Shown one piece after another: positions 15,158 through 57,326 of a stretch of 64,000 nucleotides of DNA. The notes under the pieces were generated by a model. It did not search any database, had not been told where the DNA came from, and saw only the letters and a program-made list of their open reading frames with translations. The first letter of the stretch is position 1, and each line of letters starts with the position of its first letter. Both the position numbers and the translations under genes were made by a program. Origin of the DNA: Eledone cirrhosa (Eukaryota); contig OZ024753.1 of NCBI GenBank assembly GCA_964016885.1, positions 32,116,001-32,180,000 of the forward strand, written 5' to 3'.

Positions 15158-15538
15158 ATACAATATATTAATAAATGGAAACTATATTTATAAAACAATA
15201 TTTATTTTATTATACATATTTCAAGGGCAACCAAGGCAAAATATGGTGCGCTTTCATCAGATAAAATACAGATTTGTTTTATAAATAAATATTGTCTTTT
15301 TTCTGGGCATGTCAATATTTATTTATAAAACAAATCTGTATTTTAACTGATGAAAGCGCCCCATAATTTGCCTTGGTTGGCCTTGAAATATGTATAATAA
15401 AATAAATATGGTTTTATAAATATAGTTTCCATTTATTAATATATTGTGTATTTAATCCACTAAATGTTGAGTGCTTTATATCAGTTATAAAAATGTTTAA
15501 GCTTGTTGAATCCCAACAAATTAAATATAACCTCCGCA
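15158..15538 (+). mobile_element. PLE hairpin insertion, family C copy 1: arms 15158-15294 and 15313-15451, tail to 15538
   Basis: About 137-bp inverted repeat in (TA)n; hammerhead TATTTTA(T/A) CTGATGA...GAAA TATGTA TA ATAAAATA at about 15339-15404; homologous to 21678-22093. Confidence 0.85.
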
Positions 15539-15571
15539 TATATATATATATATATATATATATATATATAT

Positions 15572-16127
15572 AGAATAAGGACGGGTTGGAAGAAGTTTAG
15601 GGAGCTGCTTCCTCTGTTGACAAAGAAGGGTTTCTCTCTGCGTACGAAAGGACGGTTATATGATGCTTGTGTGAGATGCGCGATGCTGCATGGTAGTGAG
15701 ACATGGGCAGCAACTGATGAAGATATGCGACGGCTGGAGAGAAATGAAGCAAGTATGCTCCGTTGGATGTGCAATGTCAATGTACGTGAACGACCAAGCA
15801 TAGACGAGTTGAGAAAGAAACTGGGTATAAGAGGGATAAGTTGTAGTGTGCAGGAGAGAAGGCTGAGATGGTATGGACATGTGATGCGCATGGACGATGA
15901 CCGCTGGGCAAAGAAGTGCCAAGAAATCCCAGTAGAAGGAAGACGCAGTAGAGGTAAACCACGTAAAACATGGGTGGAGGTGGTGAAAGCAGACCTCAGA
16001 TCGCTGAAACTCGCCGAAGAGATGATGAAGGACTGTGACAAGTGGAGAGATGCTGAATAAGACCCGTCCAACCCTTGCAAGCAGGGAAAAGCGGACGTAA
16101 AATGATGATGATGATGATGATGATGAT
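15572..16127 (+). mobile_element. RTE-clade LINE, 5'-truncated 3' end (ORF C-terminus to stop at 16060, short 3' UTR, (ATG)n tail)
   Basis: GWKKFRELLPLL...LYDACVRCAMLHGSETW...RRLRWYGHVMRM...GRRSRGKPRKTW is the typical RTE post-RT region; frame uninterrupted; trinucleotide tail. Confidence 0.93.
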
Positions 16128-17150
16128 ATCTCTGGAAGAAACCGACTGTATACACATATACATACACAGGCATACACGTATACAAATTCATATACACATA
16201 AAACACATACGTACACATACATATAGTTATATCCTGTTCACTTTTTTTTTTACGAAGCTTTTAGGAAATCTGAAACGATAATTCACATGTGCGCTGTTAA
16301 AACACTAATTTGTATTTTTACGACGATTATTAGGAAGTGACAATTACAGGTTTGAGATTGAAATCCGATTTAAACTGTCTACAATATTCTAATAGAAAAC
16401 AGAAAACAAACAAACAAAAATAAAATTAAAACAAAAACAAAAAAACAAACAAAAATCATTAAATACCAAGAAAACAAATTTTAAAAATCAAATGAACGAT
16501 TGCTTCTTTTTCTTGTTCTGCTAATGACAATTGTCACATGAAAAAACAGGTGAGTATAAAATAGTTGATATTATATCTGATCCTTATTTATGTTTTTCAA
16601 TTCGTATTCTGAATGTTGAGAAAGAAAGAAAGAGAGAGAGAGAAAAAGAAAATAAGAGAGAGATAGAAAGAAGGAGTGAGAGAGTGAGATAGCAAGAGAG
16701 GATAATTTCAAACTTATCCATCATATTCATTTACAGATTTACACGAAATATTTGTCGATATATATACCTCAATAATTATTTTTTCAAGTCTGGTATTTAT
16801 TTTTATCAATATATTTTTGTCGAAATGCTAAGTTAAGGGCCATATACAGAAACAAAACTCTAAACAAACACAAAATATACACTCCTGAACACACACTTGT
16901 ATGTATATATATATATATATATATATATATATATATATATAATGGGTAGTTAGATCTTCAAATAATCTTTCAAGTTTCCTAGGCTTATCGTTCAGAAGTG
17001 ATTTCTTTTAGCGGAGCCTATACTGGCTTCCCCATACACACACACACACATATACAGAGAGAGAGAGAGAGAGAGAGAGAGAGAGACTAGCTGTTGAAAT
17101 GGCAAGAGTTCAGTCGTTGGGACCCGGCTCTTTGTTATATATATATATAT

Positions 17151-17640
17151 AGTAATAATAATAAATTTGAAGACTAAAATCCAAAGAGGGCTCGATAAGG
17201 ATAAATATATATCAAATATATAAGAACCGTAGAGACTTCTGCTATACCATTTACGTGGTTTTGTCTTTGCGTGCTATTGTTCTCCACGCTCCACATATGA
17301 CGTATTATCTTCGTTTTTTCGTTCATTGCCAGAGAACGTCTCTATGCACCACCTAAGAGAACATTAGTCTACGACCTCTTTTATACCATAAACGTGGTTC
17401 TGTCTTTGCGCGTAATTGTTTTTCACCGCTCCTATTAATGACGTATTATTCGTTTTTTCCCGTTCTTTGCCAGCGAACGTCACCATGAACCAAAGTATCG
17501 TCTTCCTGTCTTCCTCCGGTTGCAACGTTTTTTTGAAATATCCACTTCTGCGTTTACAGATTGACTATGTTAGTCTCAGAAGATCCCGTTAAGGGTGAAA
17601 ACAGCGATTCTTTGCTTAAACTTTAAACTGTTATTTTAAT
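17151..17640 (-). mobile_element. Probable PLE remnant in (TA)n with an internal ~140-bp direct duplication; end shared with 27181-27232
   Basis: Hammerhead-like CAGAAGA TCCC-gttaa-GGGT GAAA near 17577-17600; reverse tail motif TATCGAGCCCT near 17190; duplication about 17243-17350 vs 17382-17492. Confidence 0.5.
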
Positions 17641-17687
17641 AAATATATATATATATATATATATATATATATATATATATATATATA

Positions 17688-55310: not shown

Positions 55311-55710
55311 TATTGTTTCTACTTTTGTCACAAGGCCAGCAATTATCCCAGTGTATTACTAGTACTTTATTTTATCTACCCCGTAAGGATGAAAGGCAAA
55401 GTTAACCGCGGCAGGATTTGAACTCAGACCGAAAAGGGACATAACCCTATGCTGCAAAGCATGGCGTCCGATACTGCCAATCCACTGCCAATAACATCTT
55501 AATAATGGTGTCTGATTTAGGCACAAGGTCAACAACTTCGGAGCAAGGGAAAGTCCATTAAATCGACCCCTGTGCAATACTGGTACTTTATATTATCCAT
55601 CCTGTAAGAACGAAATGCAAAACGAACATCGGTGGGATTTGATCTCAGAATGTAATGTGCCGTAACTATATTGTTGGCCGATGCCAACCCACTGCCAACC
55701 CACCGCCCTT
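55311..55710 (-). mobile_element. Two adjacent SINE family 1 copies (young 55311-55488, older 55500-55710)
   Basis: Two reverse-complement consensus matches in tandem. Confidence 0.82.
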
Positions 55711-56571
55711 GATTATCTTAATTTAAAAAAAAAGACAGACAAAATTAGAGTTTTAAAATTATTAAAAAATGTTGTTGTTGTCCCTAGGTCACACTTTCGA
55801 TATGGACCTTGTATTAAAGGACCGGGGTGGCTCTACTGATCCCCGTACATATGTATAAACTCACCCACAGAGAACAGAAGACATAAACACACATGTCAAA
55901 CACAAATACACACACGCGGAAATGTATCATAGAAAGACAAGATCGAGTATACAAAATAAGCTAAGAAAAAAGCGGAGGCAAAGGGGAAAACAGAGTTATT
56001 GAGGTCTCAATGTGTGACGAAAGAACTTTGACGACGGTTAATTAATACCTAATAAAAAAAATTGAAGTGAAAATTAAATAATTTTTTTATTGGCATATAT
56101 ACATATATATATTGTATATGTACATATAAACATACATATATATGACTGTGTATGTATGTATATTGATGCGTGCATATATGTGAATGTAGTACTAATATCT
56201 TTTATATATCCTCAAGGGTTTAATTAGCTTTTTATCTGGGAATCATTTTGTTTGTGTTAATCATCCTCTCAAGTTTGCTAATATACAGTTTCAAACGGTG
56301 TGAATCAAGCAGAGAAATATATATGACATCAAACGCAAATAGTACCAAACAGATATCTAATTACCACACATGATCACACCCCCAAACATTATATATATAT
56401 ATATATATATATATATATATATATATATATATATATATGTGTGTGAAGATAGACATAGAATATTCGAAACTATTCTGTATGTTTATAATAAACATTTTGA
56501 AGACCTAATCGCTATAGAATAGAATACGTCACGTATTACAATTAATCCAATATATATATATATATATATAT

Positions 56572-56677
56572 GAAAATATATGACCCCGACGGCAGAGCTG
56601 AAGCCGTTTCGACGGCTATTTCGAGTACTCTGGTGCGTTATGGTCCATCTGGTTCCTTACCACAACTCCTTCGTTTT
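56572..56677 (+). mobile_element. PLE family A, minimal copy with no sense arm
   Basis: Inverted arm ending GACGGCTATTTC joined directly to GAGTACTCTGGTGCG of the tail. Confidence 0.83.
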
Positions 56678-56882
56678 ATATATATATATATGCACTCATG
56701 CTCTCTCTCACACATATGTTTATATATATAAATATATAGATGCAATAAGGCTGAATGGTTAAGAAGAGTTCGCTTACCAATCTTTAGGTTTGGGGATCGG
56801 TTCCACGGTATGGCATCTTGTAAATATATATATATATATATATATATATAAATATATATATATATATATATATATATATAAA

Positions 56883-57326
56883 TATAAAGAATCAAAAAGA
56901 ACAGAAAGATGCAGTAAAAGAGATTTATTCGGTTCTAACGTACGTTTCAATAGACATCAATTTGCCTAGATCTCGCTGCATTTATAATATTATATAGTTA
57001 GTATATAGAAATATAATCTCTGATGATATGGAATCGATTACGCATTGGATGTCGAATGCTCTACTAACTATAAAATATGATAGATGCAGCGAGATCTAGG
57101 CAAATTGATGTCTATTGAAACGTACGTTAGAACCGAATAAATCTCTTCTACTGCATCTTTCTGTTCTTTTTGATTCTTTATACACGCCCCGGAGTGTAGC
57201 TAAACTGGAATATACACCTATTTTCTGCATTTCGTTGAGCACCACTCTGTTGTAAGCTGACCTTCCCCTACACGGTACATAACACAGTGTCCTGGAAAAC
57301 CTTAATGCACTCGTGCATAACCAATT
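56883..57326 (+). mobile_element. PLE hairpin insertion, family P: arms 56883-56980 and 57084-57182, tail to about 57326
   Basis: 98-bp inverted repeat; hammerhead TCT CTGATGA (57020), about 90 nt, GAAA CGTACG TT AGA (57117-57131); (TA)n flanks. Confidence 0.83.

Follow-up and report, generated by a model that had tools for sequence, protein, structure and literature searches.

A hairpin conserved in Hydra-clade Penelope-like elements lies next to their internal copy ends and is a probable docking signal for reverse transcription

We analysed 64,000 nucleotides (nt) of DNA from Eledone cirrhosa (GenBank assembly GCA_964016885.1, contig OZ024753.1, positions 32,116,001 to 32,180,000 of the forward strand), hereafter the window, numbered from its first letter, and a motif, YRTYGAGTRCT, which a preliminary description had placed in the 3' tails of several repeat families. 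The window is AT-rich (34% GC) and crowded with (TA)n runs and SINE-like repeats. The families in question consist of short elements inserted in (TA)n; they combine an inverted 5' arm and a hammerhead-like motif with a 3' extension, or tail, on one side, which is the established layout of Penelope-like elements (PLEs) (PMC8557442). As their layout matches the known one, the families are 5'-truncated PLEs. Head-to-tail arrays of these elements were absent from the BLAST comparison of the window with itself (self-BLAST). The longest copy of family A, which carries a remnant of an open reading frame (ORF), has the following parts:

39969..41970 (+): longest copy of family A, with an inverted 5' arm (39969-40440), then the direct copy and the tail, between (TA)n runs; in self-BLAST, 39966-40440 matches 41892-41425 at 95.8%
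40436..40660 (+): ORF remnant, C-terminus of a Hydra-clade PLE protein (end of the GIY-YIG domain); 97 protein hits, hhalign to alignment A4
41782..41877 (+): type I hammerhead-like motif with a variant core, predicted cut after 41872; relaxed descriptor
41890..41892 (+): internal end, site 1, the TAT at which the inverted arm and tail-less copies stop and join (TA)n; self-BLAST, read breaks
41893..41970 (+): tail, from site 1 to the presumed site 2; sequence, self-BLAST, end mapping

The 74-codon stretch at 40436-40660 matches 97 proteins, and a search with a full-length member of the cluster returned 2266 more. The remnant aligns to A4 by hhalign at 97.1% (E 6e-11), covering the last 55 profile residues, and is the sole significant match to the A4 profile in the window; a word-index protein search with 65 residues and a Pfam search of the remnant gave no match. 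RWK, DKT and a CxCx5C linker define the Hydra clade (PMC8557442), and the relatives' alignment has RWK, ADKT and an invariant CxCx5C (C562, C564, C570), parts that lie outside the truncated window copy and were read in relatives. The C-terminal GIY-YIG domain of Hydra type is present in family A, and some relatives carry a Pfam GIY-YIG match below the cut-off. In addition, the window copies share with the Hydra clade the insertion into (TA)n with an inverted 5' arm and a one-sided tail, and a canonical type I hammerhead near the 3' end is predicted, with descriptor matches to the core at 21906 and 26948 and the variant core of family A at 41787. No hammerhead was among the 150 of 213 Rfam window matches listed, which are microsatellite artefacts. 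Judged by its protein, family A is thus a Hydra-clade element. The window copies of the other families hold no ORF remnant, and their hammerhead, target and hairpin (below) suggest membership of the same clade. The Naiad clade had been considered first; three octopus Naiad consensuses, compared by eye, do not match the tails.

All ten strings listed in the preliminary description are present in the window, seven of them, all on the plus strand, at the positions given there; one starts at 42145 instead of 42146 and the two on the minus strand begin at 17197 and 22653. Exact YRTYGAGTRCT occurs 10 times against 0.49 in shuffled sequence, and with one mismatch 22 times against 13.5, a level reached by one in 100 shuffles. 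With two mismatches the window holds fewer matches than expected by chance (123 against 160), so the two-mismatch cases at 57233, 19377 and 17190 are uninformative as bare strings. The exact matches are not independent of each other. Five belong to family A (21605, 38440, 39541, 41914, 58233), the copy at 42145 is related to family A on both flanks (z 4.8 and 6.5), 15465 and 22022 lie in one family (78.6% over 458 nt in self-BLAST), and the match at 34973, antisense to the hammerhead of its own element, is probably a chance one. On sequence similarity the exact matches collapse to about three lineages and one antisense chance match, and weak similarity upstream of the motif furthermore joins 15465 with 19377 and 27085 with 57233, so that the proposed occurrence in otherwise unrelated families was overstated as far as the window goes. 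The proposed distance of 40-95 nt between motif and (TA)n holds for the fitting cases (45-82 nt) and fails for 42145 (153 nt); far tighter is the distance from the internal junction upstream to the start of the hairpin described below, 2-5 nt. Taken alone, the window is a lead and not a proof.

We analysed 94 Hydra-clade loci outside the window (17 from genome contigs and 77 from metagenomes; best 80 of 574 confirmed stretches). The 17 genome-contig loci, Hydra-clade PLEs accompanied by (TA)n runs, come from contigs assigned to bacterial genomes and probably represent host-animal DNA that contaminates these bins. A hammerhead near the ORF was found in 65 of the 94 loci, giving 75 distinct sites; after exclusion of 10 sites with a contig end within 95 nt and 11 that enter a long TA-type repeat before +85, the remaining 54 sites were grouped on the hammerhead plus 45 nt into 32 families. 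Within 110 nt past the hammerhead cut, the motif with at most one mismatch is present in 18 of the 32 family representatives, compared with 0.5 in shuffles (maximum 3), 0/32 in antisense and 0/26 upstream. Exact YRTYGAGTRCT occurs in no intact outside region. The general form is GAGCACT instead of the proposed GAGTRCT, and the T of the window is a compensated variant.

In these loci the motif forms the 3' side of a predicted 25-35-nt hairpin. Its parts are NCUC, an upper stem whose length varies, a loop of 6-18 nt, a one-sided 2-nt bulge UN, GAGN and an unpaired ACU. The bulge reads UU in 48, UC in 18 and UA in 13 of 80 outside hairpins. A strict descriptor of this form, derived from the same loci on which it was scored, fits 24/32 representatives, 26/32 families and 43/54 sites (0.035 in shuffles). 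The second upper pair is of Watson-Crick type in 60/80 hairpins and the third in 44/70, compared with 23 and 18 for shuffled partners; these pairs are not required by the descriptor, and the counts are uncorrected for relatedness. The bottom pair is G-C in 72 and U-A in 6 outside hairpins, and A-U in five of seven window cases. On a quick protein tree the U-A pair marks a single clade, in which both hairpins of the leader (see below) changed together, and the first upper pair of hairpin 1 switches between U-A and C-G on several branches. The alignment and the covariance model built from it took 74 of the 80 hairpins, six imperfect ones being left out, and the 100% pairing there is due to this selection. 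Among 607 element pairs below 55% protein identity, spacer identity is 0.44, compared with 0.43 when shuffled, and identity at the 13 fixed positions is 0.90; hence the hairpin has been kept while its flanks were erased. Pairing and conservation thus place the motif on the 3' side of a predicted RNA hairpin with a bulge, conserved across the Hydra clade. Rfam covariance models run over 8 loci matched two hammerheads and, weakly, one miRNA, and nothing over the hairpins.

The shared cis-element with a stem-loop that had been proposed from the window is thereby borne out in the larger set, by enrichment as well as by compensatory pairs, with outside spacers no more similar to each other than shuffled ones. 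It is a feature of one clade, shared by descent and conserved while the flanks diverged to shuffle level. The hairpin had been anticipated correctly in kind and mostly in the wrong register: the 5' partner is ACTC or GCTC, pairing with GAGT or GAGC, and not GCACT/AGTGC or GAACT/AGTTC. Scored with the descriptor and with the model trained on outside loci, the window contains the following copies and rejected cases:

41898..41924 (+): hairpin 1 of family A, ACTC/GAGT lower stem, TT bulge, 4-bp upper stem, ACT; strict descriptor, model E 0.006
21589..21615 (+): hairpin 1, family A copy; descriptor and model
38424..38450 (+): hairpin 1, family A copy; descriptor and model
39525..39551 (+): hairpin 1, family A copy; descriptor and model
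58217..58243 (+): hairpin 1, family A copy, inverted arm ending 5 nt upstream; descriptor and model
22010..22032 (+): hairpin 1 of element 21683-22092 (hammerhead core 21906), arm ending 2 nt upstream; descriptor, model E 0.003, predicted minimum-energy fold
15454..15475 (+): hairpin 1 with one broken lower-stem pair, element 15161-15537 (family of 21683-22092); not found by the model at E<=10
27053..27095 (+): hairpin 1 with a long loop, element 26523-27155 (hammerhead core 26948), arm ending 4 nt upstream; descriptor, weak model match (E 3.6)
57186..57243 (+): decayed hairpin 1 with two deviations and a 10-bp upper stem, element 56880-57325, arm ending 3 nt upstream; relaxed descriptor
26371..26406 (+): probable decayed hairpin 1 with two deviations, fragment 26292-26478; a tolerance at which chance often produces matches
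19360..19387 (+): hairpin 1, ACTC/GAGT, TA bulge, weak upper stem, fragment 19302-19449; descriptor, model E 4.8
42145..42155 (+): decayed family A relative that has the motif, with the 5' strand missing from its expected place; descriptor, flank similarity
17187..17197 (-): earlier proposed case, not accepted, two mismatches and no adjacent 5' strand; descriptor
22643..22653 (-): earlier proposed case, not accepted, GAC in place of GAG and no hairpin; descriptor

The model ranks six window hairpins first, the five family A copies and 22010, each with E below 0.01. The two minus-strand cases, which had been put at about 17190 and 22645, do not fit the hairpin, as they lack a proper 5' strand. 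Directly after hairpin 1 of element 26523-27155, a second hairpin-like stretch (27093-27116; GCTCCAG, 5 nt, ATACTGAGGTG) matches the variant hairpin of the published Hydra-1_Crog tail at 18 flanking positions, by chance or as a captured piece.

In full-length elements the hairpin is present twice, between the hammerhead and the start codon. Counted on rows that were not dereplicated, two hairpins occur in 37 of 47 leaders of at least 125 nt, with a spacing of 55-83 nt, and in leaders of at least 50 nt a second hairpin ends at most 45 nt before the ATG in 36/55 by the strict and 47/55 by the relaxed descriptor. Hairpin 2 ends 7-40 nt before the ATG, and the distance from the hammerhead cut to the ATG is conserved at 141-187 nt. 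Being omitted from tails, the second hairpin is invisible in the sequence from which the motif was first read. Tails measure about 50-80 nt in the outside loci, and 73-140 nt lie between hairpin and end in the window. Three outside loci (L026, minus strand, near 5442 and 5385; L054; L006) hold a full two-hairpin leader and a tail-ended copy of the same family on one contig and offer natural test cases. Coding constraint on the leader was rejected, as the leader is open in frame in 6/39 cases and the motif occurs in all three frames. Likewise rejected was a tRNA D-arm or Pol III promoter: A after GCTC, corresponding to A14 of tRNA, is present in 1 of 78 hairpins, box A in 4/39 and box B in 1/39.

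Genomic copies end just upstream of hairpin 1 when tail-less and of hairpin 2 when tailed. We mapped ends in hammerhead copies with a TA run behind them, 39 in all; for 16 of these a relative continues past the junction. In 12 of these 16 the end lies at most 10 nt before a hairpin (8 at hairpin 1, 4 at hairpin 2) and in one more at -12; the other three, whose comparison copies themselves end in a tail, lie 53-70 nt past hairpin 1, close to the expected hairpin 2. By comparison, 33% of the TAT/ATA words of the leaders fall within the -10 to 0 intervals before hairpins (binomial 8e-4, with ends that are not independent). The inverted arms of the window end 2-5 nt before the hairpin in all six copies checked, and a switch from family A to TA repeats at 41892, 5 nt upstream of the hairpin, is seen in 3541 and 3077 reads of two DNA runs labelled as the species with the best match. 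Among the variants listed, those common in the reads lie in loop, bulge or flanking positions, and a single stem change, at 41899, has weak support; this placement is consistent with constraint on the hairpin and is not significant.

These positions suggest that each hairpin docks the reverse transcriptase (RT) of the element and sets the start of copying in the UA-rich bases that lie 0-10 nt before it, a reading to which we give a probability of about 0.6; RT recognition as such was among the options of the preliminary description. The element protein would bind the hairpin in the RNA, the endonuclease would nick (TA)n, and the nicked end would pair with 2-8 bases of the UA-rich template adjoining the hairpin. 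With a start at hairpin 2, hairpin 1 and the spacer would be reverse-transcribed to form the tail, and a start at hairpin 1 would leave the tail-less end of the inverted arm; tails would show one hairpin only because the anchoring hairpin itself is never copied, and the spacing of the hairpins would make the tail. For a protein of the Poseidon clade, reverse transcription begins at two sites inside the RNA, which delimit the tail (PMC11167929), and docking at the hairpins would, by analogy, extend this in vitro result. More tentatively, twin priming may be programmed, with two RT-endonuclease subunits on one RNA, one per hairpin, priming both nicked strands of (TA)n. If so, the subunit at hairpin 2 would make the tailed direct copy and that at hairpin 1 the tail-less inverted arm, the tail, the inverted repeat and their fixed asymmetry would be explained in one step, and a telomerase-like RNA anchor would be used twice.

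Several observations weigh against docking of the RT at a conserved hairpin. It is drawn from position and covariation, from which RT binding, priming and subunit number are inferred, and the ends come from 16 of 39 junctions in about nine family-site classes. The strict hairpin is missing in 6 of the 32 outside families, three lower-stem pairs of the five pairs are invariant, the antisense strand folds about equally well (54/78), and 9 G-U against 2 A-C pairs merely lean toward the sense strand. In the window, the model finds two further copies at E 3.6-4.8 only and misses 15454, 26371 and 57186, hairpin 2 is seen for no family, and family A alone is tied to the clade by protein. The descriptor scan found no hairpin in the tails of the hammerhead-bearing elements at 13467, 17696, 19852 and 35104, which may be of other clades or decayed. 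In predicted folding, the minimum-energy structure is the proposed fold in one of eight window fragments, and the lower-stem pairing probability is at least 0.5 in 2/9 window copies compared with 57/78 outside hairpins; the lower stem forms in 4/4 outside fragments. The alternative stems first proposed are real competitors in the A-U-closed, decayed window copies.

The same genomic ends are predicted if the hairpin is a downstream signal for RNA cleavage, the transcript being cleaved a few bases before either hairpin and the RT starting at the 3' ends so made, a form of the 3'-processing option of the preliminary description. The ends of RNA-seq reads of PAc, the Poseidon element of Anolis carolinensis, fall on its RT start sites (PMC11167929). 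On the other hand, PAc initiates in uncut RNA in vitro and added 3' sequence leaves its product unchanged (PMC11167929), although PAc is of a different clade, and we hold cleavage to be unlikely. Still less probable is a cap-independent translation element of the uncapped RNA left by the hammerhead, the coincidence with copy ends then being due to the adjoining UA-rich bases. The location of hairpin 2 shortly before the ATG and the conserved distance from cut to ATG fit such a role, and ribozyme-linked initiation of translation has been proposed for other retroelements (PMC6765202); yet two thirds of the TAT/ATA words in leaders lie elsewhere while the ends cluster at hairpins, and it would leave unexplained why both hairpins mark ends. 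A translation role and RT docking are not mutually exclusive. An element acting as DNA, either a site recognised by the GIY-YIG endonuclease with insertion beside existing copies or an internal promoter motif, we regard as improbable. It could draw on the tail of Drosophila virilis Penelope, needed for endonuclease recognition (as cited in PMC11167929), on the internal promoter of Penelope (PMC2377424) and on a folding energy that favours neither strand. However, the variable loop, the one-sided bulge and the freely covarying inner pairs suit a single-stranded fold and not a duplex site, the inserted DNA lacks the very hairpin 2 that marks its end, and the promoter option, raised in the preliminary description, is disfavoured by this covariation and by the scarcity of boxes A and B. 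Finally, that no element is selected and the motif reflects homologous tail leftovers and loose matching is already largely refuted: the collapse to about three window lineages, the chance level of two-mismatch matches and the two failed minus-strand cases speak for it, but in the outside loci flank similarity has dropped to that of shuffled sequence, the fixed positions keep 0.90 identity and compensatory changes are seen, all in a non-coding region.

The family A hammerhead (41782-41877, 39981-40076) deviates in its core (CUGAGAA); its loop II is long, as is stem III, whose loop is palindromic, and by its sequence it could fold as monomer or dimer. Read and contig depth rises about tenfold or more at 41826-41845, so most family A copies seem to keep just the last 130-145 nt, to which restriction-site bias of the RAD libraries may contribute. 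Further elements flanked by (TA)n, with inverted arms or hammerhead cores and no hairpin, lie at 12843-13715, 17689-17890, 57398-58070, 22121-22506, 34862-35424 and 19694-19900; the first has its extension on the left and an inverted arm and shares its 3' end with 17689-17890. They are candidates for other PLE clades with other start signals. At 61618-61641 on the minus strand, about 19 nt adjoining a (TA)n run resemble, by eye, the 3' end of a published octopus Naiad consensus. A 160-codon stretch at 15572-16060, without a Pfam match, begins directly after a (TA)n run and ends in (GAT)n; we take it to resemble the C-terminus of an RTE-type LINE protein. The SINE-like family of about 190 nt has many copies on both strands, 82-97% identical in self-BLAST (8898-9047, 18585-18895, 25495-25699, 44845-45030, 46271-46478, 50173-50364, 53118-53312 and 55304-55489 among them), and about five tandem 77-nt units lie between short inverted matches at 31241-31630 (self-BLAST).

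The hairpin can be read in published Hydra consensuses from coral and sea cucumber (PMC8557442), in the tails of Hydra-2_Amil and Hydra-2_Ajap and, in both copies, at the 5' end of Hydra-1_Ajap. In Hydra-1_Amil, TTTGAGTAGT resembled the motif and was rejected, as it precedes hairpin 1, where that consensus stops. Six 9-mers gave 4 matches in six Hydra consensuses, at hairpin positions; the Naiad and Chlamys files, which are far larger, gave 3, and none of these was seen at an end. Line wraps can hide matches in these counts. The viral contigs searched contain no Hydra ORF, and eight viral loci with the double-motif pattern, without hammerhead or ORF, were taken as chance. A description of the hairpin was not found in the literature searched or in Rfam, and the Repbase reports and Lunse et al. 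2016 on PLE hammerheads could mention it; as far as searched, a doubled, clade-wide hairpin element is new.

The origin of the tail and the inverted arm of PLEs has been stated as open (PMC8557442), and the sole in vitro study leaves the RNA element recognised by PLE proteins undefined (PMC11167929). A conserved hairpin of 25-35 nt, present twice and tied to both ends, names the exact bases to mutate, and the origin of the tail becomes directly testable through a numerical prediction, that tail length follows hairpin spacing. Since PLE RTs are the sister group of telomerase (PMC8557442), an RNA anchor beside a short template that pairs with a repeat bears on the origin of telomerase RNA recognition. 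A model of a Hydra-clade protein (pLDDT 92.8) has telomerase RTs as its best structural matches with low TM-scores (0.3-0.4), and this match says nothing about a hairpin binding site. Furthermore, a short element fixing where a compact RT of 700 residues starts internally is of interest for RNA-templated insertion tools, and the hairpin serves at the DNA level as a marker by which the short copies without an ORF that fill the window can be classified.

In LINE and SINE 3' stem-loops, the R2 3' UTR, hepadnavirus epsilon and the anchors of telomerase RNA, a structured RNA binds the RT and sets the start of copying. Each of these elements occurs once, in or upstream of the part that is copied, whereas the Hydra hairpin is doubled and lies downstream of the start, the copy in use remaining uncopied. 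The Hydra clade as described by Craig et al. 2021 (PMC8557442) agrees with our elements in the C-terminal GIY-YIG domain, CxCx5C, canonical hammerhead, (TA)n targets, inverted 5'-truncated arm and optional tail; that account, in the part available, differs in giving a tail of 30-40 bp, probably from endonuclease resolution, and mentions no hairpin. Non-LTR retrozymes (bioRxiv 10.64898/2026.07.22.740005; PMC4209133 for PLE hammerheads) are likewise short hammerhead-bearing PLE derivatives in animal genomes, and they are defined as tandem repeats, whereas the window copies are single insertions with inverted arms, one with an ORF remnant; the tail motif was not found in the portion of the retrozyme text examined. 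PAc (Frangieh et al. 2024, PMC11167929), whose protein is a predicted dimer, resembles our elements in its two internal RT starts that bound the tail and in its AT-rich target. It is of another clade, starts at an AC-rich stem-loop that lies within the ORF, shows no homology to its target and has an undefined binding motif, and by eye the hairpin was not found in the stretch of PAc RNA in supplement 1. In contrast to PAc, the Hydra-clade sites, including those of the window, lie in a non-coding leader, have microhomology to TA and possess their own conserved copy of the hairpin at each site.

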